Notes: a model not told the origin generated them from the sequence alone. A DNA stretch of 63,537 nt from Actinomycetota bacterium (GCA_009930425.1 RZYE01000001.1:1-63537), one strand, 5' to 3'; shown: positions 13,244 to 39,943, numbered from the stretch's first letter. Numbers and translations: made by a program.

Positions 13244-13782
13244 CCACCACCCATGATCCCGCCTTCAGCGAGTACCTCGAGGCGTTGGGTGCCCTCGTCG
13301 AGTTGCCCGGGCACCGGGACGAGTCGCTCGCGCAGGCGCGCCTGGTGGGCCGGGCCGAGGTGGACTCGGCGATGGCCGAGCTGCGTGACCTGCGCACCGC
13401 CCTCGCCAGCTGCGAGGACGACGTCGCACGGCTCACGTCCCGGATGGCGCGCCTGGGCGCGCGCACGCGGATGGACCTCGACGACGACGCACCACCCGAG
13501 GCGCCGGTCGGCAGCGTGGCCGAGGCCTGCCGCCTCGTGGAGGCCCTGCGAGCCGACCTGTCCGCGGCCGAGGGGGCCTGGAGCTGGGTGGAACGGGCCC
13601 TGCCGCAGCTCGAACGACAGCCGGATCCGGGACCGGTCGCCCCCGTGCCAAACGTGACGGGGCACGGCACCCCACCTGTCGCCGCGCAGGAGCCGCCCGG
13701 ACGTCCCGGCACCCGCGTGTGGGGTGTGCTCGCCGCAATCGCGCTCGTCCTCGCCGTCATCCTCGTCCTGTTGGTCCTCTGA
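13240..13782 (+). CDS. Coiled-coil protein with a C-terminal tail-anchor TM helix
   Basis: GTGA start/stop overlap with the FtsK-like gene. Helical heptad-like N-terminal part. The C-terminus is VWGVLAAIALVLAVILVLLVL. Confidence 0.6.
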   Translation: MTTTHDPAFSEYLEALGALVELPGHRDESLAQARLVGRAEVDSAMAELRDLRTALASCEDDVARLTSRMARLGARTRMDLDDDAPPEAPVGSVAEACRLVEALRADLSAAEGAWSWVERALPQLERQPDPGPVAPVPNVTGHGTPPVAAQEPPGRPGTRVWGVLAAIALVLAVILVLLVL

Positions 13783-13792
13783 GGGAGTCACA

Positions 13793-14251
13793 ATGCAGCA
13801 ATCACGCCAGCGCCGCCGCCTCGTGCAGCAGGAACCGCTGCCTGCCGTCCAGGCCAACGCGGTGACGCAGTCGGCCGCCGACTCCCTCGTGATGCGCAAG
13901 CGCAAGGTGCGGCGTTCGGCGGACCTCGTGCGCGCGATCACCCAGGTGGACGTCACCACAGACCCCGCCGCCCAGCGTGAGCTGATGGAGTGGATCGAGG
14001 GCGCCTACGCCGAACGAGGCAGCGGCGTGCTGATCGGCCTGTTCAGCCACTGCTACCTGGGGCATCCGTACGTCGACCACCAGCTGGACCTCTCCGGCCG
14101 GATCATCACGCACTTCACGGCCTCCGATACCGTCCCACCGGGCTTCGACCTTGCCCGGCCGCTGGCCCGCTCGACCGCCTACGCCTTCATCGAGGTGTAC
14201 GGGGACGGCCAGGTCGTACCGGTACGGAACGACGGCACGTCAGCAATCTGA
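13793..14251 (+). CDS. Hypothetical 152-aa protein with a His/Cys cluster
   Basis: ATG follows a GAGGGAG SD, 10 nt after the upstream stop. The SHCYLGHPYVDH cluster (HCx3Hx4H) suggests metal binding. No family recognised. Confidence 0.5.
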   Translation: MQQSRQRRRLVQQEPLPAVQANAVTQSAADSLVMRKRKVRRSADLVRAITQVDVTTDPAAQRELMEWIEGAYAERGSGVLIGLFSHCYLGHPYVDHQLDLSGRIITHFTASDTVPPGFDLARPLARSTAYAFIEVYGDGQVVPVRNDGTSAI

Positions 14252-14276
14252 AGCAAGGAACAAGGAGAAACACCGA

Positions 14277-16025: not shown

Positions 16026-16294
16026 GCGAGAATGACACCACCCTCATGACCACGCCGGCCGAGGACGGCGCTCCGACCGTCGTCGTGCGCCGTCCACGCA
16101 GCAGCGGGAAGTTCGTCCCGCGGAGCACACCCACCCCCGATTCCGACGAGGTCATCATCGGGCGCAACCTGCTCACCTCACGAAACCGCGACGGCAAGGA
16201 GCAGACGCCGCGGGAGCGGCGGATCGCGGGCGACTTGCCGGCGTGGGAGCCGCTTCCACCCGGCGAGTTGTTCGTCAGGCGGGGCCGTCACTGA
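16022..16294 (+). CDS. Small (about 90 aa) disordered basic protein
   Basis: An in-frame GTG overlaps the upstream stop (GTGA). An alternative ATG lies at 16046. Placement inside a coupled operon is the only support. Confidence 0.4.
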   Translation: MSENDTTLMTTPAEDGAPTVVVRRPRSSGKFVPRSTPTPDSDEVIIGRNLLTSRNRDGKEQTPRERRIAGDLPAWEPLPPGELFVRRGRH

Positions 16295-20736: not shown

Positions 20737-20938
20737 GTCCGCACTCCTTCCACGCCTATGACCGTGGCATCATGGCACTAATGACGTCCCAAACAGCATC
20801 TCAGCCACAGGCCGGACAGGACGGTCGAGGGTTCGTGAATTGAAGGCCCACCAGTTTTCGGATTGATAGTCTGTCCCCAGAGATGCATTCGCCGCCGGCA
20901 GCACCCAATCGGGCCTCCTGCGAGTTCCCTAGTCCCGC

Positions 20939-20952
20939 GGTTGCTCGCAACC
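20939..20952. promoter_or_regulatory. Inverted repeat GGTTGC-TC-GCAACC upstream of the IMPase/TIR operon
   Basis: 6-bp arms with a 2-nt spacer, 24 nt upstream of ATG 20976, in the divergent intergenic region 20737-20975. Candidate operator only. Confidence 0.2.
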
Positions 20953-20975
20953 TGCCGCCGGGGAAGGAAGGGGTA

Positions 20976-21743
20976 ATGGTGCCAGAGTCGTGGGCCGCGG
21001 AGGCCGAACTCGCTCTCCGAGCGGCCCAAGCAGCCTCGAGGCACGCTCAGGAACGACGGGACTCCCTACAGGTCGTCTCAATCGCCGCGCACGATGTCAA
21101 GCTCGAACAAGATATTGAATGCCAGCGGGTTGCTGCTGACCTGATTCGAGCCTCTCGTCCAACCCACACGATCCTCGGCGAAGAACCGGGCAGCGATGTC
21201 GAGCAGTCAACACACTCTTGGCTGATCGATCCCATTGATGGAACCTTCAATTACTCCCGAGGACTTCCCTACTGGTGCACGTCCGTAGCTCTGCGGAGCG
21301 CCGGTCACACCGTCGCCGGCGCAGTAGTGGCGCCAGAGTTGGGACTCACCTTCACTGCCACCTCCACCGGGCCAAGCTCGGTCAACGGTCGCGTCCTCCC
21401 CCCGATCGCGACAAGAGAGCCGCAGTTCGCGTCTTTGCACATTTCTCTGTCGGACGCTCCCGAAGCGGGAGATTTCCTTTCACTTGCTGCATCGAGATTC
21501 CAGAAGATCCGACTCATGGGATCCATCGCACTAGATCTCTGTTTCGTGGCGCTGGGTGCAGCCGATGCGATGGTCGCTCTCCGCGCCTTCCCCTGGGACT
21601 CTGAGGCAGGCCTGCTCATAGCCGGTAGGGTGGGAGCCCGTACCGTCGTCATCGATCGCCCAAAGGGTCAAGTCCTTCTCTGCGGTAGCGCCAAGCTCTT
21701 GACCCTCCTACGAGAGTTCCCGTTCGGCGTGATGCCAGAATGA
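20976..21743 (+). CDS. Inositol-monophosphatase-family (IMPase/CysQ-like) phosphatase
   Basis: ATG follows GGAAGGAAGGGG. Motifs are ILGEEPG, WLIDPIDGTFNY and PWDSEAGLLIA. The stop overlaps the next start (ATGA). Confidence 0.85.
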   Translation: MVPESWAAEAELALRAAQAASRHAQERRDSLQVVSIAAHDVKLEQDIECQRVAADLIRASRPTHTILGEEPGSDVEQSTHSWLIDPIDGTFNYSRGLPYWCTSVALRSAGHTVAGAVVAPELGLTFTATSTGPSSVNGRVLPPIATREPQFASLHISLSDAPEAGDFLSLAASRFQKIRLMGSIALDLCFVALGAADAMVALRAFPWDSEAGLLIAGRVGARTVVIDRPKGQVLLCGSAKLLTLLREFPFGVMPE

Positions 21744-23035
21744 CGCAGGTCGTCTTCATCAGCCACTCGAGCATGGACGCGGAGACGGCCCGAGAACTGG
21801 CGGATGCGCTCCGGTCGCGCGGGATGGATCCGTGGCTCGCGTCGGAGAGGGTGACGCCGGGAGGATACTACGCGTCCGAGATCACCCGAGCCATCGCGCA
21901 AGCGGACGCTGTCGTTGTCCTGCTCTCACGGGCGTCCATCACCTCTCCACAGGTGAAGCGGGAGGTGGACAGCGCTGTCTCCGCCGACCGACCCTTGATT
22001 CCTCTGGACCTGCACGGCATCCGGACTCTCTCAGAGCTACCCGACGAGTGGCAGTACCTGCTGCGACTCACGCAATGGCACCGTCACACTCACGCCTCGG
22101 ACACCGCGCATCATCTGGAACGGATACTTCTCGGTGAAGCCTCCTCGGGGCCCACCGTCCGAGCCAGTGCACCTCGCGCAGAACCCGCAACGGTGACGAT
22201 CGCCGACAGCAACCTGCTCGTGGTGAAGGCGTTCCTACTCGCATCGCGTCTGGCCAACGAACTAGGCGCTCTGGGTGCCGCGCCTCACATGGTCAACGCC
22301 CCCTGGTCCAGCAACCTATTGGACCGGGCGGTCGACGGCGAGCTCGACTTCCTGATCTACAACGAAGTCGCTGCACGCAGCTTCGCTGAAAGGCACCCTG
22401 ACGAACTTGTCGTCGTTGCACACGCCGGTCATTCGATGGGGGGCAACAACTTCGGAGTTCTCGTCAGCAACGATTCACGGTGGCGAGATGTGGATCTGGG
22501 AACGCTGGGAACGCTTCTGGATCACGGTGTCCGCATCTACCTCGGGCTAAACAGCGACCGGGCTCGCAACTTCTCGCTTGCGACCGGGCTGACGTTGCTC
22601 GAATTGCGGGAGCGCGGAGTCGTGGTAGTGAACGCAGGCGAACCGGGCCTTGAGATCCTGGCGAGCGATCCCGACGCCATCATCGTCACCGGTCAGAACG
22701 CGCGGTTCGAAGCTCGCTTGAGCGGCGCGGCGTACGAGGTGGGAGGCTTTGAGAGGCTGCCACCTCAGACTCGAAAATCCCTTCGCCAAGGGTCCTCAAA
22801 TGTCCTGCTCGCTCGACTTGAGACCGCCAACCAACTAGGACTTGATCTCCCTAGTCTTGGGGCCCGTGTCAAGCGGAATGCCGCTGAGTGCTGGGCAGAC
22901 GACTCCGAGTTTGAGTCGCTAGTGAGTACGTTGGCTGGATGCTGCGACTTCCAGTTCGCGCGTCGACAAGATCGAATCTTGATCACAAAGCACGTCCTGT
23001 ACGAGACATACCGGGCAGGTGAACCAGTCCTGTGA
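21740..23035 (+). CDS. TIR domain fused to a type-2 binding-protein (NMT1/SsuA-like) fold
   Basis: VFISHSSMDAETARELADALRSRGMDPWLASERV...AVVVLLSRASITSPQVKREV is a TIR domain with the conserved Glu. The C-terminal ~290 aa (TIADSNLLVVKAFLLASRLANELGALGAAPHMVNAPWSSNLLDRAVDGELDFLIYN...) follow the SBP pattern. No signal peptide. Confidence 0.75.
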   Translation: MTQVVFISHSSMDAETARELADALRSRGMDPWLASERVTPGGYYASEITRAIAQADAVVVLLSRASITSPQVKREVDSAVSADRPLIPLDLHGIRTLSELPDEWQYLLRLTQWHRHTHASDTAHHLERILLGEASSGPTVRASAPRAEPATVTIADSNLLVVKAFLLASRLANELGALGAAPHMVNAPWSSNLLDRAVDGELDFLIYNEVAARSFAERHPDELVVVAHAGHSMGGNNFGVLVSNDSRWRDVDLGTLGTLLDHGVRIYLGLNSDRARNFSLATGLTLLELRERGVVVVNAGEPGLEILASDPDAIIVTGQNARFEARLSGAAYEVGGFERLPPQTRKSLRQGSSNVLLARLETANQLGLDLPSLGARVKRNAAECWADDSEFESLVSTLAGCCDFQFARRQDRILITKHVLYETYRAGEPVL

Positions 23036-23877
23036 GTGCACTGCGATACCTCGTGGTCGGGAGTTTCAACCTCGACACGGTGATCCGGCTCAGATCCTTT
23101 CCGCCACCGCACTCGAAGGTCCAGGCTGAGGAGATCTGGCGAGGCCCAGGCGGGTCTGCGGCCATCACCGCCGCCTGGCTCGCTCGACAGGGCTCCGCGG
23201 TATCTCTCGTCGCGGCGTCAGGGGGAGATCACGAGGCGCACGAGGCGATTGGGCGACTCACGGCTACCGGAGTCAACTGCCGGTTCGTGACAACCACCAG
23301 CCCTGAGTCATCGAGAGCCTACTCACTTGTCACCGAGACAGAGAAGAGGATCATCACACGCCCGTCCGGTCAGCGGCTCCCAGCCCTAAAGTCAGCCGAA
23401 GAGGTCCTACACGAGTTCGACGCCGTTCACATCGCGTCGGCAGCCAGCCCGGAACTAATGGCGTTCGCTACCACCTGCAGAGAGAGACGTATCCCCTTCA
23501 GCGTCGAACTCGCAGGGCGCCGAATGCCGGAAATCACATGCATGGCGGAACGCACCTTCTTGAATTCAGATGAACTCAGCCTCCTCTTTCCGTCGGGATG
23601 GAGTGACTTCCGGACGGACGTAGGGGGCACGCTCGTCGCTCGCAATGGGCGCCTAGTCGTCACCCGCGGTCGTATCGGGGCATCCGAACACGGCGAAGAC
23701 CTGACGGTGACGGCGCCGACCGTGGCTGTGACCTCCGTCGACCGTACCGGGGGAGGAGACGCGTTCAACGCCGGATACCTCTACGAGTGGCAGACCGGCG
23801 GGACGCCGGAGGAGTGCCTTCAGGCCGGGCTACGATTGGCGACATCGGCAATCACCAGAATGGGGGGCCTACCGTGA
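23032..23877 (+). CDS. PfkB-family (ribokinase-like) carbohydrate/nucleoside kinase
   Basis: GTGA overlap with the upstream stop. N-terminal motif VVGSFNLDTV. C-terminal signature VDRTGGGDAFNAGYL. Confidence 0.85.
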   Translation: MSALRYLVVGSFNLDTVIRLRSFPPPHSKVQAEEIWRGPGGSAAITAAWLARQGSAVSLVAASGGDHEAHEAIGRLTATGVNCRFVTTTSPESSRAYSLVTETEKRIITRPSGQRLPALKSAEEVLHEFDAVHIASAASPELMAFATTCRERRIPFSVELAGRRMPEITCMAERTFLNSDELSLLFPSGWSDFRTDVGGTLVARNGRLVVTRGRIGASEHGEDLTVTAPTVAVTSVDRTGGGDAFNAGYLYEWQTGGTPEECLQAGLRLATSAITRMGGLP

Positions 23878-24485
23878 CACTGACAGGCATCGCGCTTCTT
23901 CCGCGAGACGACCTTCGCGAAGCACTGGTGGAGTTCCGAGCTCGCCATTCGAGTTCGATCGCCGGACCCGAACTCGGCCTTGAAGTCAACCTGCCGCACA
24001 TGTCGATCCTGCAGTGCCCGTTCACCGACGGTCTGGATCACCAGTTGGTAGTCGACGTGTTGGCAGACAGAGTCCTCAGCAGCCGGACACCGCTTCGTTT
24101 CGCAGGACTCAGCTATCAACCGCGAGCGTGGATCTTCGCGGACCTGGAGAAGCCCAGATGGCTGGTGGATCTACAACGGACCGCCCTCGCACTCAGCCAA
24201 GCCCATATCGACCTCTCATCAATCGGCAACCGAGCCGGCGACGAATTGACCCCCGCGGAGGTCGAGAGCTACCGCACCTATGGGTACAGGTATGTAGGAG
24301 ACGCCTTCCGACCGCACATCACCTTGGGTCGGACCCCGGACCGCGCCGAGAATCTCGCTGCTGGCCTTGCAGCCGAATTCTGGAGCGAATTCGCAGATTC
24401 CGAGGTGACCTTCAGTTCAGTGGTGTTCTACGAAGCTGGGGAGTCAGGCGTGCTCGCACGCCGGCTGGCCGAACGTCAGATCTGA
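23874..24485 (+). CDS. 2H (LigT/cyclic phosphodiesterase-like) phosphoesterase
   Basis: GTG start overlaps the PfkB stop (GTGA). It has two H-x-S/T motifs (PHMSILQ and PHITLGR) about 110 aa apart, as in 2H-superfamily enzymes. Confidence 0.7.
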   Translation: MTLTGIALLPRDDLREALVEFRARHSSSIAGPELGLEVNLPHMSILQCPFTDGLDHQLVVDVLADRVLSSRTPLRFAGLSYQPRAWIFADLEKPRWLVDLQRTALALSQAHIDLSSIGNRAGDELTPAEVESYRTYGYRYVGDAFRPHITLGRTPDRAENLAAGLAAEFWSEFADSEVTFSSVVFYEAGESGVLARRLAERQI

Positions 24486-24627: not shown

Positions 24628-25860
24628 ATGAGCGGACCAAAGGGCTACGGCTACACGGTGGTCTCGGCGGAGGAACTCGCCCGGAGGGAGGCCGAGAGCG
24701 CTCGCAACGCCCTCATGGCCGCGCAGAGCCGCCTTCGAGAACTCCGGACACGTGCCACCGGGTTGAGAATCCAGGCCTCCGTCCCCGAAGCGCAGGCGCG
24801 CGTTCCCGCCGGCGCCACCGCCGCCGAGATCCGCGCCGTCATCGCGACCGTCGAGCAGGCCCACAGCCGCCTCGAGGCGGCGATGCGGGAACGCCGCCAG
24901 GAGCTGGCCCGCGCCGAGCTGGCCCGCGCCGTCGGGCAGCTGGACCTGTCGCAACTCGGCACGGTCACCTCCATGCCGCGGTCCACCAAGGCCCGAGTCC
25001 AGCGCAGCACCCAGGACCACCGAACCGCCCAGGACCACCGCGATGCCCAGGACCACCGCGATGCCGAGCGGCAGCGGACCGAGCAACTCCGGGCACGCCT
25101 CATCAAGGCGACGGACGCGGCCAGGGTGCTCGGCGACTCCGAGCTCACGCGGATCGGCACGCTCGCGGCTGCGGTGTCCGCCACGCTGGAGGGCGCCACG
25201 GATGCCGGGCTCCCCCCGGCCCTGGCGGTCAGCCGACTGGAGGCCGCCGTCGTCGACGCCGTGACCGCCCAGCGGCAGCGGGACGCGAACGACCGCCGGC
25301 GCGCCACGATCGCGGTGGCGAACGCGGACCTGGCCGGCAGCGCCGCCGAGGAGATCCGCGAACGGCTCGCCGCCGCCACGACCCCGGAGGACTTCAGCCG
25401 CGTCGAGGCGGAGTTCGCGGCACTGCGGGAGGAGGTCCGCGCCGAGGCCGACCGTGCGTTCGTGCTCGCCACCTCGCTCGCGGTGCTCCGGGAGATGGGC
25501 TACCAGGTGAGCGAGACGCTGTCGGGCGGGCGGGCCCCCACCCTGACCGTCAGCGACGTCCACTGGCCGAGCCACCGGCTCCGGATCGTCCTCGATCCCG
25601 ATTCGGCCGCGCTGCACACCAGCCCGGTCGCGATCGCCCCCACCGATCCCCGCGATGACGTCCGCTTCGAGGAGTCCTCCTGCAGGGCGCTTGCCCGGTT
25701 CACCGAGAGCCTGCGGGCCCGAGGGGTCGCCACCACCCTGGACCGGCACCGCGCTCCCGGTGAGGTGGCCCTACTGCACGAGCACGCCGCCACGGCCAGC
25801 GGCCACACAGTCAGCGGCCACACAGCACGCCCACGCGAGCGCACGCTGGGAGACCGGTGA
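24628..25860 (+). CDS. Coiled-coil protein (410 aa) with a globular C-terminal part
   Basis: GAGGAAG SD. Long Ala/Glu/Arg heptad-like helices. It contains an internal QDHR(T/D)A x3 repeat. The stop overlaps the next start. No family recognised. Confidence 0.7.
   Translation: MSGPKGYGYTVVSAEELARREAESARNALMAAQSRLRELRTRATGLRIQASVPEAQARVPAGATAAEIRAVIATVEQAHSRLEAAMRERRQELARAELARAVGQLDLSQLGTVTSMPRSTKARVQRSTQDHRTAQDHRDAQDHRDAERQRTEQLRARLIKATDAARVLGDSELTRIGTLAAAVSATLEGATDAGLPPALAVSRLEAAVVDAVTAQRQRDANDRRRATIAVANADLAGSAAEEIRERLAAATTPEDFSRVEAEFAALREEVRAEADRAFVLATSLAVLREMGYQVSETLSGGRAPTLTVSDVHWPSHRLRIVLDPDSAALHTSPVAIAPTDPRDDVRFEESSCRALARFTESLRARGVATTLDRHRAPGEVALLHEHAATASGHTVSGHTARPRERTLGDR
25012..25065 (+). 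repeat. In-frame 18-nt tandem repeat x3 (CAGGACCACCG[A/C][A/G][A/T][C/G]CC)
   Basis: cag gac cac cga acc gcc / cag gac cac cgc gat gcc / cag gac cac cgc gat gcc encodes QDHRTA QDHRDA QDHRDA. Confidence 0.8.
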
Positions 25861-27656
25861 TGCGTGACCTCTCCGAACACCCGATCTGGCTGAGGGACAT
25901 CGACGCCGCACTACCCGTGACTGCGTCGTTCGTGGTCAGCGGGAACATCCGCGACCTGTACCTCCTCCCGCACTCGAGCCGGCCCAAGGACGCCTACGCG
26001 GCACTGTGGGACACCCTGCGGCGCAGCGGCTTCGAGGCGATCGTGCTGCACACGCCGAGCGCCCTGCGGGTCCTCCCTCTCGGCGATTCGGCGGCGATGG
26101 AGGCGGCCTGCCAGGTCCTGGGCACCAAGGAGGAGGACTTCGACGCCCCCGTCGGCCCGGATGAGCTCGCACGCCACGTCCGCAGCGTCCTCGGGACGTC
26201 CGCACGGCGCGTGGCGCTCGTGGTCGACTACGTGTCCCAGTGGAACACCAGCGGCGAGTCGGTGGCCCCCGCGGACCTCGCGCTCTTCCGCACCGCCCTC
26301 GAATCCATCCACGCGGCGCACTCGTTCCGGTACGGCAGCGCACGCCGGTCCGCGCTGTACAACCCCCTCATCTGGCTGGTGGACCGGCCCGCCGACCTCC
26401 CGGAGTGGCTGGTGGGCGGCTCCGACCTGATCCGCCAGGTCCCGATCCCCTCCCCCGACCTCGACGACCGGCTGGACCTCACGCGCCGGCTCACGGCCGG
26501 CATGTCCCCCGACGGCGCCGCCGCCGAGGCGGGTGCGCGCCGGTTCGCCGAGCTCACCGAGGGCATGACGCTGCGGTCCCTCCTCGAGATCCGGCAGCTC
26601 TCGATGGACCAGGAGATCGGCCTCGACCACATCGACGACGCCGTGCGCGCCTTCCGGATCGGCGTGGTGACCAACCCGTGGGCGCGCCGGGAGCTCCAGC
26701 AGCGGATCCGCGACGGCGCCGCCCACCTCACCCGGCGCGTCAAGGGCCAGGACCGCGCCGTCCGTCACGCGTTGGACATCCTGCTCCGGTCCACCACGGG
26801 CATGACGGGGGCGGAGACCGGCCGGCCGGTCAGCGGCCCGCGCGGCATCCTCTTCTTCGCCGGGCCCACCGGCGTGGGCAAGACGGAACTCGCCAAGGCC
26901 ATCACGGCCCTCGTGTTCGGGGACGAGCGCGCCTACATCCGTTTCGACATGAGCGAGTTCGCCTCGGAGCACACCGAGGCCCGGCTCATCGGGTCCCCAC
27001 CCGGCTACGTCGGCCACGGGCAGGGCGGCGAGCTGACCAACGCGGTGCGGCAGAAGCCCTTCGCGCTCATCCTCTTCGACGAGATCGAGAAGGCCCACCC
27101 CCGCATCCTGGACAAGTTCCTCCAGATCCTCAGCGACGGCCGCCTCACCGACGGCAGCGGCGCCACCGTGCACTTCAGCGAGTCCCTCATCGTGTTCACC
27201 TCGAACCTGGGCGTGCCCCCGGTCCCCGACGGGGAGGAGCCGCCGCGCGGCCGCGAGCTCGAGGAGACGGTGCAGGCCGCCATCACGGACGCCTTCGAGC
27301 ACGACCTCCACCGCCCGGAACTCCTGGGGCGGATCGGGGACAACATCGTGGTCTTCGACTACATCAGCCCCGACATCGCGCGCGTCCTCGCCTCGGACTT
27401 CATCGACAACATCCTCGCCCGTGCCCACCAGACCCGGGAGGTCAGGCTCCGGATCACCGACGACGTCCGGGCGCACCTGGTCGAGGAGGCGATCGCCGAC
27501 CTCTCCAAGGGCGGCCGGGGCATCGGCCGGAACCTCGAGCGGATCCTCGTGAACCCGTTGGCTCGCGCCCTGTTCGACCTCGAACCCGGCCGGTCGGCCA
27601 CCATCACGGACGTCAGGCGGGAGGAGGCCGGGTGGTACACGGTGAGCCTCGCCTGA
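25857..27656 (+). CDS. Clp/Hsp100 D2-type AAA+ ATPase with a P-loop-less N-terminal AAA-like module
   Basis: ILFFAGPTGVGKTELAKAI (Walker A at 26862-26885). The Clp AAA_2 hallmark is present: RFDMSEFASEHTEARLIGSPPGYVGHGQGGELTNAVRQKPFALILFDEIEKAHP. The N-terminal half (FVVSGNIRDLYL...VALVVDYVSQ) lacks a Walker A. Confidence 0.85.
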   Translation: MMRDLSEHPIWLRDIDAALPVTASFVVSGNIRDLYLLPHSSRPKDAYAALWDTLRRSGFEAIVLHTPSALRVLPLGDSAAMEAACQVLGTKEEDFDAPVGPDELARHVRSVLGTSARRVALVVDYVSQWNTSGESVAPADLALFRTALESIHAAHSFRYGSARRSALYNPLIWLVDRPADLPEWLVGGSDLIRQVPIPSPDLDDRLDLTRRLTAGMSPDGAAAEAGARRFAELTEGMTLRSLLEIRQLSMDQEIGLDHIDDAVRAFRIGVVTNPWARRELQQRIRDGAAHLTRRVKGQDRAVRHALDILLRSTTGMTGAETGRPVSGPRGILFFAGPTGVGKTELAKAITALVFGDERAYIRFDMSEFASEHTEARLIGSPPGYVGHGQGGELTNAVRQKPFALILFDEIEKAHPRILDKFLQILSDGRLTDGSGATVHFSESLIVFTSNLGVPPVPDGEEPPRGRELEETVQAAITDAFEHDLHRPELLGRIGDNIVVFDYISPDIARVLASDFIDNILARAHQTREVRLRITDDVRAHLVEEAIADLSKGGRGIGRNLERILVNPLARALFDLEPGRSATITDVRREEAGWYTVSLA

Positions 27657-27676
27657 CCCTCCGCGTCGCCCGCGTG

Positions 27677-28291
27677 ATGTCCCCCGTGACCGTGCTGGGA
27701 CCGGGACGGCGGGTGGTCCTGTGGGTGCAGGGCTGCGGCATCGGGTGCCCGGGGTGTGCCTCCGTGGACACCTGGGATCCCGACGGCGGCACGCGCCTCG
27801 ACGTCGTCGCCCTCGTCGGCCAGATCGGTGACCTCATCGGCCGGGACGGACTCGACGGCCTCACCATCACCGGGGGCGAGCCGACCGACCAGGGCGAGCC
27901 GCTGCACGAGCTCGTCACGCTGCTGCGGGCGCGCCGCCCCGACCTCGACGTCCTCGTCTTCACCGGACGCACGCACCGGGTGGCCGCGCGGCGGGCGCCC
28001 CGCCTCCTCGAGGCCACCGACTGCGTGGTCGCCGGTCCGTACCGGCGGGACCTGCCGCCGAACGGGCCCCTGGTCGCGTCCGCCAACCAGACCGTCCACC
28101 TCAGGTCCGGCGCGGCGCGGGAACGCTACGCGGCCCTGCTGGAGGACTCGCTGGCGCCCGGGCTCCAGGTGTGCGTCGAGGACGGTGAGATCCTGCTCGT
28201 GGGGTTGCCCCGGGCCGGGGACCTGGATCGGTTCGAGGCCGGCCTCGCCGCGGCGGGGGTTCGACTGGAGGGAGTGACGTGGCGACCATGA
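27677..28291 (+). CDS. NrdG/PflA-like radical-SAM activase-family protein
   Basis: VVLWVQGCGIGCPGCASVDTW carries the CxxxCxxC cluster at 27734-27757. LTITGGEPT is a SAM-binding GGE motif. At 204 aa it is the size of small activases. Confidence 0.8.
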   Translation: MSPVTVLGPGRRVVLWVQGCGIGCPGCASVDTWDPDGGTRLDVVALVGQIGDLIGRDGLDGLTITGGEPTDQGEPLHELVTLLRARRPDLDVLVFTGRTHRVAARRAPRLLEATDCVVAGPYRRDLPPNGPLVASANQTVHLRSGAARERYAALLEDSLAPGLQVCVEDGEILLVGLPRAGDLDRFEAGLAAAGVRLEGVTWRP

Positions 28292-28913
28292 TGCGACACG
28301 GGTGCGGCACGGTGGTGGATGCCGACGAGATCCTCTGCCCGGGCTGTGGCGGAGCGGTCACCGAGGAGACGCTGAGCCCGCTCGAGGAGGCGGCGACCAC
28401 GGTCCTGCCTGCCGGCGCCGCTGCCCCTCCCCCCGCGGTTGGCCCGAGCGAGGGAGAGCGGCTCTGCCCCACCGAGTGGTGCCGCCGTCCCCTGCTCCCC
28501 GGGGCGACCGTTTGCGACGGCTGCCACCGTCCCGTCCCGCCCGCCACCCCGCAGCCAGGCCCAGGACCGTCCGTGCCGGCGCCCACCGGACGGCCCGCCC
28601 TCGCCACCGCGACGTACGCGCTCGTCCTGCCCGGGGCGGTGCGGCTCGTCCTCCGTGCCGGCGAGACGCTCGAGTTGGGGCGTGAGGCGGGCCCCGCCGT
28701 CGTCAGGGCCACGCTCGCCCCCCTCGACACGGTCTCGCGGCGCCACGCCAGCGTGACCGCCGCGCCGGACGGGGCGGTGGTACGCGACCTGAACTCCGCC
28801 AACGGCACGTTCGTGGACGATGTGGCCGTCTCGGCGGCGATCACCGTCCGGCCGCCCGTGGTGCTGCGGCTCGGGCAGACGGTCAGGATCGGTCTCGTGG
28901 AAGGGGAGGGGTC

Positions 28914-28917
<4 letters not shown>
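28279..28917 (+). CDS. Double zinc-ribbon - FHA domain protein
   Basis: CGTVVDADEILCPGCG and CPTEWCRRPLLPGATVCDGC are the two ribbons. The FHA core is LELGRE...VSRRHASV...NSANGTFVDD (GR, SxxH, NG). It overlaps both neighbouring genes. Confidence 0.8.
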
Positions 28918-31565
<2,648 letters not shown>

Positions 31566-31574
31566 GAGAATCCG

Positions 31575-32309
31575 ATGGATGTCAGGTACGCCGCTGTCAC
31601 CAACGTTGGCAGTGTGAGGAGCGAGAACCAGGACGCGATCCTCATCGACGGCCTCGCCAGCACCCAGGATGTGCTGTACAGGGACAAGGGCGGCACCCGC
31701 GACGGTGACGCCCCGCTCGTCTTCGCGGTGTTCGACGGCATGGGGGGCCATGCCGGCGGGGGCACCGCATCGCGCATCGCGGCGATGGTGGTGGGGGCGG
31801 CACCCAGCCCCCGGACGGAGGCAGAGGTGGTGGAGCGGCTCCGTCGCGCCAACGCCCTCATCCTGGAGGAGACCCGGCTGCGGCCGGACCTCACCGGGAT
31901 GGGGACAACCGCCGTCGTCGTCTCGGTGTCGGCGGACGGCTTCGTCGTCGCCAGCGTGGGCGATTCGGCCGTGTTCCGCGTGCTCGGGACGAGCCTCGGC
32001 GAGCTGACGGCACCCGACCGCGTCCCCGACCCCAGGCGCCCGGGCGCGTGGCTGCTGACCGCAGCCCTGGGGCCCAGCGCGTCGGTGACACCCCACACGG
32101 ACGTCTACCCCGTGGCAGCGCCCACGCGGCTCGTGCTCGCCTCCGATGGGCTGACGGACGTGGTGGACAGGGGCGAACTCCGCCGCATCGCCACGGGGAC
32201 GGATGACCCCGAAGCGGCCGCCCTCGCCCTGACGGCCGCGGTGCTGCGGGGAGGCGGTCCGGACAACGTCTCGGTCATCGTGCTCGACCTCGAATCAGGC
32301 CTCGATTAG
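31575..32309 (+). CDS. PP2C-family Ser/Thr phosphatase
   Basis: AGGAGAA SD. Motifs are GSVRSENQDA, FAVFDGMGGH, GMGTT, LASDGLTD and GGPDNVSVIVL. Confidence 0.9.
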   Translation: MDVRYAAVTNVGSVRSENQDAILIDGLASTQDVLYRDKGGTRDGDAPLVFAVFDGMGGHAGGGTASRIAAMVVGAAPSPRTEAEVVERLRRANALILEETRLRPDLTGMGTTAVVVSVSADGFVVASVGDSAVFRVLGTSLGELTAPDRVPDPRRPGAWLLTAALGPSASVTPHTDVYPVAAPTRLVLASDGLTDVVDRGELRRIATGTDDPEAAALALTAAVLRGGGPDNVSVIVLDLESGLD

Positions 32310-32366: not shown

Positions 32367-32849
32367 TCAGTCGCGCATGAAGGACCAGAGATGCACCGGG
32401 GACGAGTCATTGATGTAGTCGATCAGTGGGGACCCGTCCCAGTCGGCGGTGAGACTGCCCTGGGAGATGATGGCGTACTTCGACCTGGCTGGGTTCCCCA
32501 TGTAGTTGCCGGTGCTCAGAGCAGTCCGCACGGCATCCCACTCGGTGTTGATGGCGTCGTTTATCCGAGACGTCCCAGAGGGTTCCAATCCCCACGCGGT
32601 CAGTCCACCACCCCATGGTCCCTGTATGGCGGTGAGCATCAGAGTCTCGTCCTTGTCGAAGTAGAAGCCAACGTCGGAAACCTCAAGCTCCGTCCTGTCG
32701 AGGTCGAGGAGTTCGAGTACGTACGCGATCAACGTGTCGAGGGGCGCTTCCGTGGTGTACCAGGTGATGCTCTCACCCGCTCGTAAGTTGGCGACGTACA
32801 TGCTGCGCGGGTGATCGTCTGGCAGGTTCGGGCTTTGCAGAATGCTCAT
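32367..32849 (-). CDS. Hypothetical 160-aa protein in a visibly less GC-rich patch
   Basis: GAAGGA SD. Composition is acidic and Trp/Tyr-rich (WYTTEAPLDTLIAYVLELLDL..., PWGGGLTAWGLEP). It is the only minus-strand gene between 20976 and 43066. No family recognised. Confidence 0.6.
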   Translation of the reverse strand: MSILQSPNLPDDHPRSMYVANLRAGESITWYTTEAPLDTLIAYVLELLDLDRTELEVSDVGFYFDKDETLMLTAIQGPWGGGLTAWGLEPSGTSRINDAINTEWDAVRTALSTGNYMGNPARSKYAIISQGSLTADWDGSPLIDYINDSSPVHLWSFMRD

Positions 32850-33062: not shown

Positions 33063-33206
33063 ATGTTCAAGGCCGAAGCGAAGAAGACACAGCAGGGCAA
33101 CTACAACGTTGCCGGCACTTGTCGCAATGGGCACACCTCGTTCAAGAAGGCCGGAGACACCTCAACTGCCTACAAGTGCCCCTACTGCGGACACGACGTT
33201 CCCTGA
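33063..33206 (+). CDS. 47-aa zinc-ribbon-like peptide
   Basis: An AAAGGAG SD lies 7 nt before the ATG. MFKAEAKKTQQGNYNVAGTCRNGHTSFKKAGDTSTAYKCPYCGHDVP has the pattern Cx4H...CxxC. Confidence 0.5.
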   Translation: MFKAEAKKTQQGNYNVAGTCRNGHTSFKKAGDTSTAYKCPYCGHDVP

Positions 33207-33371: not shown

Positions 33372-34412
33372 ATGGCCGTCTTCATCAGCTATCACAACAG
33401 CCGCAGCGAGACCGTGGAACATGTGGTCCGGTATTTGCAACGGCACGGCATTGAGGCGTGGTACGCGCCGCGCAACATCCCGCCCGGCGCCACGTGGGAC
33501 GAGGCAATCGTCTCCGCGATCCGGTCCTCCGAGGCACTGGTGCTGCTCTTCGACGCGTCTGCCGATGCCAGCAAGCAGATCAAGCGCGAGATCCACACCG
33601 CGGACGAGCACGGGATCCCCATCCGTTGGCTCCGCCTTGAACAGATCCAGCCGAGCGGTCTCGAGTTCTTCCTGGGCATGACCCAGTGGATCGACTGGCT
33701 GGATGCGAGGGACGAGGCCCTTGAGCAGCTTGTCGCTTCGCTTCCCAGCCGCAAGGACGCTCCCCCACCGATCCCAGTACACGTCCCGGTGGAACCCGAG
33801 GAGGAGGCGCCCGGTGAGGAAGCACGCGCCGAGGAAGCCGAGGAAGCCGGACCAGCCGGCGAGTCCGGCGGGGTGGACCGGGACGTCACCACGGAGCCGG
33901 TCTCGACGGCCCCGGTGCTGGCCCCCTACACCGAGTGGACACCGCATCCGCTGCCGCCGATGAACGAAGCGTCGTGGGACGACGTCGTGGACGGTCTCGT
34001 GGAGATCATCGGCGTCGAGGGACCGGTGCTCGCCCACCGCGTCTTCCAGCTCTACACCCGGGGCATGGGTGGCCATCGGATGGGGAGCACGACAACCGAG
34101 GAGCTCCAGTACGCACTCGAGCGCGGACTGCGCCAGGGCCGGATCGCGAAGGTCAAGGACTACCTCCGTGGCCAGCTGAACAAGACGCTCTACATCCCCG
34201 GCACTCCCCCGGCCGTGCCCCGGCAGCTCGGCCCCCGGCAACTGGCCGAGGTGCCCCGCTCCGAGATCCAGCAACTCGTGCGGAACCGCGGGCTCGAGTT
34301 CGACTCGCCCGACGTTCCCCGAGCGGTGCAGGAACAGCTCGGGTTGAAGCGGCTCACCGACAAGACCGTCGAATTCGTCAGCGAGTGCATGGAGTACCAC
34401 CACCGGGTGTGA
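33372..34412 (+). CDS. TIR domain - acidic linker - C-terminal wHTH-like (DUF3320-like) domain
   Basis: GGAGGTGA SD. VFISYHNSRSETVEHVVRYLQRHGIEAWYAPRNI...ALVLLFDASADASKQIKREI is a TIR domain with the conserved Glu. The C-terminus VDGLVEIIGVEGPVLAHRVFQLYTRGMGGHRMGS...LERGLRQGRI resembles the DUF3320-type tail. Confidence 0.75.
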   Translation: MAVFISYHNSRSETVEHVVRYLQRHGIEAWYAPRNIPPGATWDEAIVSAIRSSEALVLLFDASADASKQIKREIHTADEHGIPIRWLRLEQIQPSGLEFFLGMTQWIDWLDARDEALEQLVASLPSRKDAPPPIPVHVPVEPEEEAPGEEARAEEAEEAGPAGESGGVDRDVTTEPVSTAPVLAPYTEWTPHPLPPMNEASWDDVVDGLVEIIGVEGPVLAHRVFQLYTRGMGGHRMGSTTTEELQYALERGLRQGRIAKVKDYLRGQLNKTLYIPGTPPAVPRQLGPRQLAEVPRSEIQQLVRNRGLEFDSPDVPRAVQEQLGLKRLTDKTVEFVSECMEYHHRV

Positions 34413-34550
34413 CAGTCGGCCCCCCAACCGACGAGTCGGAGCGATCGATCTCCCACACGCCTCCGCGTTCAGGATCAGGGAGTCGCATGACGGCAGGGCG
34501 CCGTCAAGTAGTCTCGCAGTTGGCGGCGGACGTGCTGCAACCCCCTGGGT

Positions 34551-35801
34551 TTGGGAATCGGGATGACTCGGAGAACATGGATGGAAGCGCCGACGACCGC
34601 TGATGCCGTGGAGACGTTCTTTCGACGCGATGTCATCGGCGGAGTCATCCCGGGAATCCTGGTAATCACCGAATTCTGGTTGTTCGGCGTCGTGCTCTCT
34701 GGTGGAGATCCCAAGGCCGCTTTCAGTGGCACACTCGCCATCCTCCAAGGTGCCAATTTCGCCACCGGGGCAGTCCTCCTCGTGGGATTGGCCGCCGGTG
34801 GATGGGTCCTTGGTTGGACGGCCCGCAAGCTCGGCTTCGTCCTGATGGACCTCTCCGTGGTGAAGTGGGCTGCACGAAGGGTGAAATCCCTGCCCGCCAC
34901 CACCCGGGACACGCTCCGACAGTTGAAGACCGAGGACCCCATCTCCTACCGGGCAATGACCACACGCCACGATTGGTGGCCGTTCGATCCGGAGTGCGTC
35001 GACGACGATCGGATGACGATCTTCCATCATGCGAAGCAGTGGCTCATCCGGAATGATCCCCAGAGCGCCGCACTGGACAAGGAAGCCACGATCAACGCGC
35101 TGGCTGGAGTCGCAGTCGCGGGGTTGGGAACTCTGCTGTTGGTGCACTGGGTTCCCCCGCTGCTCGTCGCCACTGCCGTGGCCTTTGCCATCCTGCTCAT
35201 CGTGCTCGGAGCTCGCGAGCGCCGCTACGAGGAGATGGACGTGCTGCGCGCAATGATGTATTCCGTCACCTTCGAGGACCGGCCGGATACGACGACTCAC
35301 CGAATCCCGTGGGGCCAGTTCGAGACCATCTTCAAGCCGATCATCAGGGCGGAACTGGACTGGGAGGCAGCAGCAGGTTCGTCTGTCTGGTTGGAGGTCC
35401 TCGATTCCCTGCCCGGAGATTGGCACACCGTGTGGTACCTCGTGGGGCGGGGAACCGAGTGGGGCCGGCTCGGGGCACACCACGAATCGAACGCGGTTCC
35501 CTTGACCGTGAGTGAGGCTGCTCGAGAGGTGGCGAGTGAATCGGGGCCACTGAAGGACTTTGACAAGGTCAGAGAGATCGCCGCAGCCTTCGCGAGCCAC
35601 GGGAGCGCGGACCTGTTGCTCGCAGCCTGGCGAACGCGGACAGGTCGAACGATCATCCTGGACGGCAACCATCGCGTGGTTGCCGCAGCATTGGCCGGCG
35701 TTCCCGTCCGAACGGTCGCCATGGTGATCCGGGCTCCTGCCGACTGCACGGTACTCCCCGATCTGGTCCATCACTTGCCGGACCAGTCGCCTTGCCGCTA
35801 G
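34551..35801 (+). CDS. Multi-TM protein with a C-terminal ParB/Srx-like domain
   Basis: TTG 34551 or ATG 34563. About five hydrophobic helices (VIPGILVITEFWLFGVVL, GAVLLVGLAAGGWVLGW, LAGVAVAGLGTLLLV, LLVATAVAFAILLIVLGA). The C-terminal RTIILDGNHRVVAAALAGVPVRTVAMVI contains a DGxHR-type ParB N-domain motif. Confidence 0.6.
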   Translation: MGIGMTRRTWMEAPTTADAVETFFRRDVIGGVIPGILVITEFWLFGVVLSGGDPKAAFSGTLAILQGANFATGAVLLVGLAAGGWVLGWTARKLGFVLMDLSVVKWAARRVKSLPATTRDTLRQLKTEDPISYRAMTTRHDWWPFDPECVDDDRMTIFHHAKQWLIRNDPQSAALDKEATINALAGVAVAGLGTLLLVHWVPPLLVATAVAFAILLIVLGARERRYEEMDVLRAMMYSVTFEDRPDTTTHRIPWGQFETIFKPIIRAELDWEAAAGSSVWLEVLDSLPGDWHTVWYLVGRGTEWGRLGAHHESNAVPLTVSEAAREVASESGPLKDFDKVREIAAAFASHGSADLLLAAWRTRTGRTIILDGNHRVVAAALAGVPVRTVAMVIRAPADCTVLPDLVHHLPDQSPCR

Positions 35802-35962
35802 GCGCTCCGGTGGCTCGAAAGTCCTCCGTTGCCGGGCCTCGTCGACGTCCGCGAGCTCGTGCGTCGTTATCAGCGAGCGCCATTCGGGATGCGCGCAGCC
35901 GACATGATTTCGGGGTCTGACAGGATGTCCCCAGACGATCTCGTCCGGCGAAGGGGCACGCG

Positions 35963-38914: not shown

Positions 38915-39864
38915 CAACCGCGCACAACGCGCACGAGGGTGAACGCCTCGCGGACGAGGCGACTCGATCCTTGGCCTTCCGCGATCCCAACGACCTCCCA
39001 CTCCTCTACCGCTGCGCCGACACGTCGTCGATGCTCACCCAACGGCGGTTCTTCCGAGCCCTCCGGTTGCGGCTGGCAGGCTTGCTTGGCGCAGTCGTGG
39101 GTGCCGCTCTCACCTCGTTGACGGTGGCCGGCGTCAACGTCGGCGGGCTGATCGCCCTCGCCTCGTTCGCCGTCGCGCTCGCAGCGGAACTGTACGTGGC
39201 GATCATGCGCCCGGAGCGCGCCTGGTACGAGGGCCGTGCCGCCGCGGAGTCCGCGAAGACGCTGGCGTGGCGCTACATGGTGCGTGGGGAGTCGTTCGAG
39301 GACATCGACGATCCCCGAGCCGATCGCCTGTTCACCTCCGAACTCAGGGAGATCCTGCGGTGCATGGACCTCACGCTGGATGCCGCCGATTCCCGCGGCG
39401 CGCAGATCACCGACGCCATGCGGGCGGTCCGGGGCGCCGACTTCCCCACGAGGCGCACCCTCTACCTGGAGCAGCGCATCGAGGACCAGAAGGCCTGGTA
39501 CAGCCGCAAGGAGAAGTTCAACGCGACCCGCGGCCACCAGTGGCTGGTCGCCACGATCACGCTCGAGATCCTCGGCCTGCTCGGCGGCGCCGTGTGGGCG
39601 TTCGGCAGCGTCTCGTTCGACTTCATCGGCGTGTTCGCGGCCCTCGCTGCCACCATCACCGCGTGGTCCCAGGCGAAGCAGCACCAGACCCTCGCCACGG
39701 CCTACGGGATCACGGCCCAGGAACTCGGGATGGTGCTGACGGAGGCTGAGAGCGTGACGAGTGAGGCCGACTGGGCGACATTCGTCGGCGAGTCCGAGGA
39801 GGCCATCTCGCGGGAGCACACGCTCTGGCGGGCCTCCCGGGGAATCCGGCCCCGGCCCGCGTGA
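38911..39864 (+). CDS. SLATT/DUF4231-like membrane protein (two 2-TM modules)
   Basis: ATGA overlap with the upstream stop. TM helices are LRLAGLLGAVVGAALTSL / GGLIALASFAVALAAELYVAI and WLVATITLEILGLLGGAVWAF / FIGVFAALAATITAW. The motifs AWYEGRAAAESAKTLAWRYM and QKAWYSRKEKF are typical of SLATT-type modules. Confidence 0.6.
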   Translation: MTTAHNAHEGERLADEATRSLAFRDPNDLPLLYRCADTSSMLTQRRFFRALRLRLAGLLGAVVGAALTSLTVAGVNVGGLIALASFAVALAAELYVAIMRPERAWYEGRAAAESAKTLAWRYMVRGESFEDIDDPRADRLFTSELREILRCMDLTLDAADSRGAQITDAMRAVRGADFPTRRTLYLEQRIEDQKAWYSRKEKFNATRGHQWLVATITLEILGLLGGAVWAFGSVSFDFIGVFAALAATITAWSQAKQHQTLATAYGITAQELGMVLTEAESVTSEADWATFVGESEEAISREHTLWRASRGIRPRPA

Positions 39865-39943
39865 CGGGACCCCGGAAGCACTCAGCCAAGATCGCCGCCC
39901 TGAGACAATCCGGTTGAGGTGCAGCACCAACCTGGAGACTCAC

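Follow-up and report, generated by a model that had tools for sequence, protein, structure and literature searches.

Organization of the six-gene locus

A stretch of DNA of 63,537 nucleotides (nt) from an Actinomycetota bacterium (GCA_009930425.1 RZYE01000001.1:1-63537), analyzed over its whole length and referred to here as the window, contains a block of six co-directional genes at positions 24628-32309. An earlier note on this DNA had proposed these six genes, and the corresponding open reading frames (ORFs) were confirmed, all on the plus strand. The first gene (24628-25860) encodes a coiled-coil protein of 410 amino acids (aa) with an MSGPK N-terminus and no Pfam match. It is followed by genes encoding a predicted two-ring Clp/Hsp100-type AAA+ protein of 599 aa (25857-27656; Pfam AAA_2, 7.5e-46, and ClpB_D2-small), a radical S-adenosylmethionine (SAM) enzyme of the glycyl-radical-activase type (27632 or 27677 to 28291; Fer4_12, 1.5e-24, and Radical_SAM), a 212-aa protein with a double zinc ribbon and an FHA domain, termed ZnR-FHA (28279-28917; FHA, 2e-09, and a weak DZR match), an 883-aa Hanks-type Ser/Thr kinase (28914-31565; Pkinase, 5.9e-37) and a 244-aa PP2C-type Ser/Thr phosphatase (31575-32309; PP2C_2, 6.6e-10). 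Pfam backed the AAA+, radical-SAM, FHA, kinase and PP2C assignments made previously, found no vWA domain in any of the six proteins, as had also been stated, and the motifs quoted in the earlier note (GPTGVGKT, GSPPGYVG, CGIGCPGC, the FHA GR...SRRH...NGT core, HRDLKPEN, DFG, DGMGGH and DN) were all present in the translations.

A Shine-Dalgarno-like purine run lies 5' of every one of the six starts, and G+C content at third codon positions is 0.87-0.96 in all six genes, which is typical for coding sequence of a high-GC genome. Adjacent genes are closely packed, with a GTGA junction at 25857-25860 between the coiled-coil and AAA+ genes, 13 nt shared by the radical-SAM and ZnR-FHA genes at 28279-28291, an ATGA junction at 28914-28917 between the ZnR-FHA and kinase genes and a 9-nt gap, with GGAGAA ahead of 31575, between the kinase and PP2C genes. 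These four junctions are as originally described; the 20-nt gap placed before 27677, however, is probably a 25-nt overlap with the AAA+ gene, the radical-SAM gene starting at a GTG codon at 27632. This start is preferred because it lies 4 nt after GAGGAGG, because the 219-aa version that it produces is the one called in the protein collection (P0121) and because in relatives the corresponding overlap with the AAA+ stop measures 25 or 4 nt; the ATG at 27677 would give a protein of 204 aa. The spacer 5' of the first gene is 143 nt long and AT-richer, the gene 3' of the last (32367-32849) is on the opposite strand, and the six genes therefore form one block. A promoter and terminator scan found no promoter-like sites within it and two terminator-like matches, at chance level. 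GC content of the cluster is 0.70-0.73 as against 0.62-0.65 in both flanks. An identical PP2C protein is encoded on a Logan contig with the same neighbours.

The AAA+ protein

The Pfam AAA_2 and ClpB_D2-small models cover only residues 332-574 of the AAA+ protein, and no Pfam AAA model matched residues 1-285. Residues 286-599 constitute a ClpB-D2-like ring module with the Walker A motif GPTGVGKT, a Walker B motif, a GYVG pore loop and the D2-small lid. Residues 1-285 correspond to a degenerate D1 in which SGNIRD stands for Walker A and DY for the DE of Walker B. Across 120 homologues this N-terminal part keeps the motifs GNxRD, DYxSQ, NPxxW, DLPxW, PxPDxxxR, TEGMTL and DAVRxYR, and Walker A is missing family-wide. 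An AlphaFold2 model of the protein (pLDDT 88) was aligned by Foldseek over approximately 630 columns to D1 plus D2 of ClpC, ClpB and ClpA hexamer subunits (E 1e-29 to 1e-26). Because the whole model aligns with the D1 and D2 modules of these proteins, the AAA+ protein is predicted to be a two-ring Clp/Hsp100-type protein with a dead D1 and an active D2. The resemblance to D1 came from structure comparison only, a profile of the N-domain having found nothing among PDB sequences.

Several features of ordinary Hsp100 proteins are absent. Pfam gave no Clp_N match, the model begins directly with the D1-like fold, the length of 599 aa leaves no space for an M-domain and there is no ClpP loop. The NCBIfam ClpB, ClpV and ClpA models match the D2 part only and score far under their cut-offs, with 243 bits against 1232 for the ClpB equivalog and 209 bits against 885 for VI_ClpV1, which matches D2 at 1.7e-61. 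No homologue of the N-domain was found in 50,697 phage genomes. Relatives at the level of D2 number in the thousands, and the full-length family of approximately 600 aa is distinct, its hosts including Kribbella, Nocardioides, Actinoallomurus, Gordonia, Microbacterium, Agromyces, Ornithinimicrobium, Actinomadura and others.

The radical-SAM enzyme

The radical-SAM protein contains the motifs GPGRR, CGIGCPGC, DTWDxxGG (DTWDPDGG in the window), TGGEP and NQ and ends in a family-specific C-terminal extension of approximately 65 aa. Residues 17-133 align with residues 11-127 of pyruvate formate-lyase (PFL) activating enzyme (PFL-AE; 3C8F) at E 1.6e-06, and the GPGxR, CX3CX2C, DTWDxxGG and GGE motifs line up with those of PFL-AE and show conservation of at least 90% across 60 family members. 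The best NCBIfam match is to NrdG (TIGR02491; 1.9e-20), at 73.3 bits against a cut-off of 126.1, and PFLA matches at 1e-13 with 51.2 bits against 231.75.

Enzymes of this kind normally have a glycyl-radical enzyme (GRE) as partner, recognizable by the fingerprint RVxG[FWY] (PMC13450708). A regular-expression search of all six frames of the window for R[VI][SCAT]G[FYW] gave no match, bearing out the earlier statement that no GRE is encoded here, and the annotated genes around relatives included no Gly_radical, NrdD or PFL gene. O2 destroys glycyl radicals, with cleavage of the backbone (PMC13450708); most hosts of this radical-SAM family are aerobes. The protein resembles the glycyl-radical activases NrdG and PflA/PFL-AE in having the size and domain organization of NrdG, but differs in its lack of a GRE partner, its scores under the cut-offs, its extra C-terminal domain, its obligatory AAA+/kinase neighbourhood and its mostly aerobic hosts. 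A precedent for an AAA+ chaperone gene next to that of a GRE activase is bssE in the benzylsuccinate synthase operon.

The coiled-coil protein

The AlphaFold2 model of the coiled-coil protein (pLDDT 83) consists of an N-terminal beta-strand (residues 5-11), long helical hairpins (14-289) and a C-terminal alpha/beta domain (293-372), and no match was found in Pfam, NCBIfam or PADLOC. The protein belongs to a family of 2,120 representative clusters at E <=1e-3 and 778 at E <=1e-30, in which the invariant positions are M1, S2, G3, P4 and K5, G291-Y292, D344, E348 and C352, G366 and G378. D344, E348 and C352 are spaced i, i+4 and i+8 along one helix. A start of the form [M/V/L]SGPK, counting alternative start codons, is present in 180 of 184 sampled members, and profile matches always begin at residue 1. 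The C-terminal domain is homologous to that of the proteobacterial partner protein described below (hhalign probability 99%).

Comparison of the family profile with PDB sequences, and of the model with PDB and viral structures by Foldseek, gave weak matches only (E >=0.02). These included helical bundles and a spermine-synthase N-domain/S-adenosylmethionine decarboxylase-like fold, and no fold was assigned. The structure searches and hidden Markov model searches proposed earlier have in this way left the coiled-coil protein without a significant structural relative, and in the AAA+ protein they have newly revealed the D1-like half. The idea that the MSGPK sequence changes along with loss of the radical-SAM gene was considered and discarded: two loci without the gene have altered termini (MSGPA in L005, MSGSP in L013), but L006, with MSGPM, retains it.

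Recurrence and gene order in relatives

Neighbouring genes were identified by profile searches in 22 independent loci carrying the full-length AAA+ family. Adjacent to the AAA+ gene, radical-SAM genes were found in 18 of these, coiled-coil genes in 17, with a distant form in L013 in addition, and kinase genes in 15. The combination to which the earlier note drew attention, a phospho-threonine triad joined to a Clp-D2-like AAA+ protein and a radical-SAM enzyme, is found again, its genes variously ordered, in nine or more additional loci of Actinobacteria and also in Proteobacteria and Firmicutes. A scan of genome contigs yielded 80 loci, nine of them with true members of the AAA+ family, since the conserved patterns used fell in D2 and the scan was flooded by ordinary ClpB genes. 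Two loci came from a metagenome scan.

With the genes for the coiled-coil protein, AAA+ protein, radical-SAM enzyme, ZnR-FHA protein, kinase and phosphatase denoted CC, AAA, rSAM, FHA (or ZnR-FHA), STK and PP2C, the window has the order CC-AAA-rSAM-FHA-STK-PP2C. This order is also seen in L085/L086, where the AAA+ protein is 84% identical to that of the window, in Microbacterium (L088) and in Gordonia (L094). The order is CC-AAA-rSAM-FHA-PP2C-STK in Kribbella (L002), STK-PP2C-CC-AAA-rSAM-FHA in Ornithinimicrobium (L087), STK-CC-STK-AAA-rSAM-FHA-PP2C in Streptomyces (L092) and STK-CC-AAA-rSAM-ZnR-FHA in Actinomadura (L093). In Actinoallomurus (L004) AAA-rSAM-ZnR-FHA is followed by an RsbW/STAS-type pair; at 12471-16069 of this locus the positions of the Hanks kinase and PP2C are taken by an RsbW-like HATPase_c_2 kinase together with a STAS protein and a membrane protein that has a weak receiver-domain match. 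Its ZnR-FHA protein contains a Gln/Pro/Gly-rich low-complexity linker of 200 aa. Evidently the AAA+/radical-SAM pair can be wired to another phospho-signalling module. The distant relative L013 (4816-13558) encodes a kinase-beta-helix fusion, an MSGSP coiled-coil protein, the AAA+ protein, a vWA protein and PP2C, with the vWA gene where other loci have the radical-SAM gene, and may form an evolutionary link to triads of the TerY-P kind.

In Pseudomonas, Bradyrhizobium and other Proteobacteria, and on a conjugative Rhizobium plasmid, a four-gene variant is found in which AAA and rSAM genes are followed by a gene for a giant protein and by CC. The giant protein consists of two zinc ribbons, a kinase domain, DUF4011, a superfamily 1 (SF1) helicase and the nuclease domain REase_MTES_1575; this variant has neither FHA nor PP2C, and its zinc ribbons are fused to the kinase. 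The helicase-nuclease part matches the PADLOC models PDC-S37 (4.8e-148), Hhe (9e-65) and MkoA/MkoC. A Lachnospiraceae contig carries genes for ZnR-FHA, radical-SAM, AAA+ and PP2C proteins and the start of a kinase gene, in the order FHA-rSAM-AAA-PP2C-(STK). Eight plasmid matches were obtained, all of them large Rhizobium or Caballeronia replicons and five of the eight conjugative. On a plasmid copy the PGAP labels read 'AAA family ATPase', '4Fe-4S single cluster domain-containing protein', 'AAA domain-containing protein' and 'hypothetical protein'.

A single protein that might have represented an AAA+/radical-SAM fusion (P0097, 870 aa; L003 10001-12613) proved on reading to be a decayed chimera comprising coiled-coil residues 1-225, an AAA+ part without the C-terminal lid and a radical-SAM part without CX3CX2C. 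It therefore counts for colinearity and not for a functional fusion. This copy, from a metagenome-assembled genome, lies alone beside gyrAB and has apparently decayed by deletion.

Spread beyond Actinobacteria was absent from the earlier note, as were the D1 ring, the MSGPK N-terminus, the probable upstream radical-SAM start and the kinase T-x-x-E repeats described next.

The kinase, ZnR-FHA protein and phosphatase

The kinase consists of an N-terminal tail, the kinase domain (residues 79-325), a conserved helical post-kinase domain extending to approximately residue 450, a Glu/Arg-rich coiled coil and a multi-pass membrane region (approximately 650-883) in which hydropathy indicates five to six transmembrane-like segments. 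The catalytic motifs HRDLKPEN and DFG are intact. Over 640 aa the protein is 34% identical to its Ornithinimicrobium orthologue, and the kinase plus post-kinase domain is 32% identical over 327 aa to the Pseudomonas kinase-helicase-nuclease protein; the kinase with its post-kinase domain is orthologous across phyla. The kinase domain of the window also matches the PADLOC MkoA model (6e-20), and NCBIfam PknB_PASTA scores 98.6 bits against a cut-off of 450.

The N-terminal tail contains four copies of a P-P-T-R-[IH]-E repeat (28938-29066, plus strand), with the repeat threonines at residues 11, 23, 35 and 48. Two to six copies of T-x-x-[D/E] are found in the N-terminal tail of every FHA-linked kinase, with differing surrounding sequence: PATRHE six times in L002, PTTRE five times in L088, PPTRYE four times in L085, TTYE three times in L087, TRRD in L092 and L093 and T-x-L/V-E in L094. 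Because FHA domains read phospho-threonine with +3 specificity, these repeats are the obvious candidate docking sites for the ZnR-FHA protein, and they probably serve as sites of both autophosphorylation and FHA docking.

In the ZnR-FHA protein CPGC is found at residue 20 and CDGC at residue 79, ahead of an FHA domain at approximately 120-205; its best NCBIfam FHA match is FhaB/FipA (1.9e-09), at 37.8 bits against a cut-off of 125. FHA orthologues are encoded 3' of the radical-SAM gene in L002, L085, L087, L088, L092 and L094; Pfam missed the FHA domain in L004 and L093, where the translations show it. The phosphatase has the PP2C motif DGMGGH and the C-terminal, metal-binding DN, and is matched by Stp1_PP2C at 7.9e-34 (117 bits against a cut-off of 230).

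Taken across the loci, the conserved core appears from sequence comparison to comprise the MSGPK protein, the Clp-type AAA+ protein with its dead D1, the activase-like radical-SAM enzyme and a Hanks kinase with post-kinase domain and zinc ribbons, and comparative genomics shows a phospho-switch coupled to the AAA+/radical-SAM/MSGPK module.

Genomic context

The window encodes six TIR-domain proteins, at 3345, 21740, 33372, 35963, 39758 and 43141 (the last on the minus strand), two of which are TIR-NB-ARC-TPR proteins, and in addition a NACHT/nSTAND protein, a SLATT protein, WD40 proteins, an FtsK-like NTPase and a tubulin-like/vWA cluster. It is a mosaic conflict island of TIR, NLR and SLATT type, and islands of this type have been described for multicellular Actinobacteria (PMC7159879). 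Relatives of the six-gene system adjoin CHAT, RES, TIR or SNF2 genes. Flanking genes differ in every locus, with no two loci sharing flanks.

Directly 5' of the block, at 20883-24485 on the plus strand, lies an overlapping four-gene cluster in which starts and stops overlap, encoding an inositol-monophosphatase-family protein (20883-21743), a TIR_2 protein of 431 aa (21740-23035), a PfkB-family sugar/nucleoside kinase (23032-23877) and a 2H/LigT-like phosphoesterase (23787-24485). This looks like a TIR enzyme packaged with enzymes that might synthesize or break down a nucleotide-derived signal; the four-gene cluster was not found next to the six-gene system in relatives. On the 3' side, a small plus-strand ORF (33063-33206, approximately 47 aa) between the minus-strand gene at 32367-32849 and the next TIR gene specifies a peptide resembling a zinc ribbon (CRNGH...CPYCGH), and the matching Logan contig has the same ORF among its gene calls, with 47 aa. 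An immune-type run follows on the plus strand (33372-43066), with genes for a TIR_2 protein (346 aa), a 416-aa protein, a TIR-NB-ARC-TPR protein (983 aa), a two-transmembrane-segment SLATT_3 plus SLATT_1 effector (321 aa) that overlaps the preceding stop and a second TIR-NB-ARC-TPR protein (1102 aa).

Another large conflict-type system of the same island occupies 43141-56434 on the minus strand and encodes a TIR-WD40 protein (701 aa), two proteins without a Pfam match (754 and 887 aa), a Tubulin_2 protein (a tubulin-like GTPase of 1105 aa) and a 976-aa protein with a weak vWA_2 match. At 56556-63428 are genes for an RyR and PGDYG domain protein (809 aa), a 787-aa WD40 protein whose repeats number approximately ten or more and, in minus orientation, a 778-aa NTPase of NACHT/nSTAND1 type. 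The Gordonia copy (L094), too, has a PGDYG protein encoded in its flank. The Kribbella locus (L002 4717-21824) additionally encodes a 732-aa protein, an extracytoplasmic function (ECF) sigma factor and a NUDIX-APH protein.

Comparison with named systems

The earlier note could match the combination to no described system, and this continues to hold. Pfam, PADLOC 2.0 and NCBIfam 20.0 returned generic domains only and contain no model naming the system, the coiled-coil protein or the D1-like domain, and searches of open-access full text found no description, the nearest texts (PMC7159879, PMC10542128, PMC13622651) all concerning other systems. As judged from sequence, the system appears categorically new at the system level, with all of its domains belonging to known superfamilies.

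In PMC10542128, which cites Anantharaman 2012 and Gao 2020, TerY-P is summarized as a TerY-like vWA protein with PP2C and a kinase fused to a zinc ribbon or OB fold, together predicted to form a phosphorylation switch, and TerY-P-like modules are reported to act against phages as stand-alone systems. The system described here likewise has a Hanks kinase and PP2C with zinc ribbons in a conflict island, the ribbons being on the FHA protein in the window and on the kinase in proteobacterial relatives, and its distant relative L013 carries a vWA gene. It differs in lacking vWA, in having an FHA reader instead and in adding the Clp-type AAA+ protein, radical-SAM enzyme and MSGPK protein; the only vWA_2 match in the window is the weak one at 53504-56434, in the separate opposite-strand cluster. 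The Esr epibiont-sensing pathway of Actinomycetes combines MoxR, vWA, a beta-propeller sensor, a Ser/Thr kinase, a phosphatase and FHA output (PMC13622651, a 2026 preprint). Similarities are actinobacterial threat sensing, threonine phosphorylation relayed to an FHA protein (often a zinc-finger fusion) and an AAA+ ATPase. That ATPase is however MoxR and not Clp, and Esr needs vWA, a transglutaminase and a surface beta-propeller protein and is without radical-SAM and MSGPK proteins. Identification with Esr was rejected, vWA and MoxR being required there and absent here, as was identification with the FtsH ternary systems with a radical-SAM effector (PMC7159879), which require vWA and FtsH, also absent.

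In Proteobacteria the orthologue of the kinase carries in fusion a helicase-nuclease with matches to Mokosh MkoA/MkoC, Hhe and PDC-S37, whereas the kinase of the window has a membrane domain and no helicase or nuclease, and the AAA+, radical-SAM and MSGPK proteins are foreign to those systems. Dodola (DolA plus ClpB-like DolB) and the PADLOC candidate PDC-M37B also use a ClpB-D2-like AAA+ protein, and their models match the D2 core (DolB 1.2e-15, PDC-M37B 4.7e-28) over approximately 120-165 residues, in the case of DolB residues 286-451 only. PADLOC found no DolA (DUF6414) among the six proteins, and the D1-like half, radical-SAM enzyme, coiled-coil protein and kinase have no counterpart in either.

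In Pseudomonas aeruginosa the H1 type VI secretion system (T6SS) is controlled by a threonine-phosphorylation pathway of the kinase PpkA, the PP2C phosphatase PppA and Fha1, acting with the ClpV AAA+ protein. With its kinase, PP2C, FHA protein and Clp/Hsp100-type ATPase this pathway is the closest functional analogue in logic, a phospho-threonine switch by which an AAA+-dependent machine is licensed. The present system differs from it in the dead D1, the lack of a ClpV N-domain, the presence of radical-SAM and MSGPK proteins and a host range that includes monoderms, and no T6SS structural genes (sheath, Hcp, VgrG, baseplate or membrane complex) were found in the annotated flanks of the window and relatives. 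FHA, Ser/Thr kinase and PP2C triads do housekeeping in Actinobacteria, as established for the Mycobacterium FhaA/FhaB-PstP-PknA/PknB cluster; unlike that cluster, the system has no PASTA, RodA or PbpA genes, and its proteins miss the equivalog cut-offs.

Interpretation

The six genes are interpreted as a member of a widespread, horizontally mobile, phospho-gated conflict system of defence type, presumably directed against phages or other invaders, a reading to which we assign somewhat better than an even chance. It is based on the co-occurrence of the components across phyla, their retention in spite of reordering, the match of the proteobacterial effector to defence models, the conflict-island context, the plasmid copies, the GC contrast with the flanks, the T-x-x-[D/E] repeats of the FHA-linked kinases, the intact D2 motifs and two-ring fold of the AAA+ protein and the PFL-AE-like motifs of the radical-SAM enzyme. 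In such a system a threat would activate the membrane-anchored kinase, which, as the conserved repeats suggest, would autophosphorylate the threonines of its N-terminal P-x-T-x-x-E repeats; the ZnR-FHA protein would dock on the phospho-threonines and PP2C would reset the switch. The resulting phospho-scaffold might recruit or license the AAA+/radical-SAM/coiled-coil module, in which the D2 ring, with its GYVG pore loop intact, would engage either a target protein or the N-terminal MSGPK of the coiled-coil protein, with 5'-deoxyadenosyl-radical chemistry then performed by the radical-SAM enzyme on the presented peptide loop. Output would be delivered by the variable C-terminus of the kinase, as its variable fusions suggest, namely a multi-pass membrane domain in Actinobacteria and an SF1 helicase with an REase nuclease in Proteobacteria.

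Several observations weigh against this interpretation. Some copies are found amid housekeeping genes, that of Microbacterium beside glmU/prs and that of Kribbella between arc/mpa and the dop-pup-prcBA proteasome genes; the Kribbella copy may simply have inserted there, or its position may hint at a connection with protein degradation. The radical-SAM gene is missing from four AAA+ loci (L005, L009, L010 and L013), and Actinoallomurus lacks the kinase and the coiled-coil protein and has an RsbW/STAS-type module instead, so the core is not strict. The sampled loci are few and were chosen non-randomly. Sequence does not tell sensor from effector among the components, and the actinobacterial kinase may use its membrane domain as an anchor or sensor and not as an effector.

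An alternative is a housekeeping or stress module of Actinobacteria, concerned with the envelope or with proteotoxic stress, in which the switch regulates a ClpB-like chaperone and the radical-SAM enzyme matures or repairs a cellular protein. The roles that FHA/kinase/PP2C triads generally play in Actinobacteria, the FhaB/FipA match of the FHA protein, the position of the Kribbella copy inside the proteasome/Pup cluster and the Microbacterium and Actinomadura copies amid ordinary genes all agree with this. All NCBIfam equivalog cut-offs are nevertheless widely missed, no RodA, PbpA or PASTA genes lie nearby, flanks vary from locus to locus, and the system is present in some genera only, in three phyla and on conjugative plasmids; the fusion of the proteobacterial kinase to a helicase-nuclease matching defence models and the dense conflict islands of the window and several relatives also oppose it, and a housekeeping role is considered unlikely. 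Distinctly less probable is that two independent, self-sufficient modules, CC-AAA-rSAM and FHA-STK-PP2C, merely adjoin, as unrelated systems in defence islands often do. Actinoallomurus has AAA-rSAM-ZnR-FHA without a Hanks kinase or PP2C, and L013 has the kinase, PP2C, AAA+ and a coiled-coil-like protein but vWA in place of radical-SAM. The two halves nonetheless stay together, despite reordering, in the window, L002, L085, L087, L088, L092 and L094, and L006-L008, L012 and L089 have both as fusions or with reduced content; in the window start and stop codons of the two halves overlap at 28279-28291, and the kinase is orthologous across phyla.

The T6SS parallel raises the further alternative of a secretion-machine relic or regulator in which the AAA+ protein recycles a coiled-coil polymer. 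Both have the same set of FHA protein, Hanks kinase, PP2C and Clp-type AAA+ protein, VI_ClpV1 matches D2 at 1.7e-61 and an FtsK/SpoIIIE gene lies approximately 9 kb upstream in L085. TssB/C, Hcp, VgrG, EccC-type and WXG genes are however absent in and beside the loci examined, the ClpV N-domain is lacking, the ClpV1 score is 209 bits against 885 and the radical-SAM enzyme is left unexplained, all of which makes this explanation very improbable. That the radical-SAM gene encodes a true activase of anaerobic ribonucleotide reductase or PFL, and lies next to the AAA+ gene only incidentally, is scarcely credible. NrdG and PFLA are its best families, and many homologues are labelled 'anaerobic ribonucleoside-triphosphate reductase activating protein' (JGI). 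Set against this are a score of 73 bits under the NrdG cut-off of 126, the absence of NrdD, PFL and RVxG[FWY] in the window and among the annotated neighbours of relatives, the protein's own C-terminal domain of 65 aa, adjacency to the AAA+ gene in 18 of 22 loci and mostly aerobic hosts.

Within the preferred interpretation of a phospho-gated conflict system, confidence in any specific radical chemistry is low. One speculative and rather improbable form would be a protein-radical immune switch, in which the Clp-type unfoldase feeds a near-invariant, Gly-containing site of the coiled-coil partner (its MSGPK N-terminus or its LGY loop), or a threaded invader protein, to the activase-like enzyme, and the backbone radical formed there reacts with O2 in these mostly aerobic hosts and cleaves the chain. 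If true, this would be an irreversible trigger or weapon licensed by phospho-threonine and the first glycyl-radical chemistry outside anaerobic metabolism.

If the six genes do represent a defence system, they would add a new class of immune component, an activase-type radical-SAM enzyme with a Clp-type threading motor, and a eukaryote-like kinase/FHA/PP2C switch gating such a machine. The puzzles that the family poses are the substrate of an activase-like enzyme in aerobes without a GRE and the near-fixed MSGPK N-terminus of its partner. Approximately 2,100 clusters of coiled-coil proteins are unannotated, and solving one member would allow annotation of thousands of genes, in Streptomyces-like bacteria, Pseudomonas, rhizobia and gut Firmicutes.

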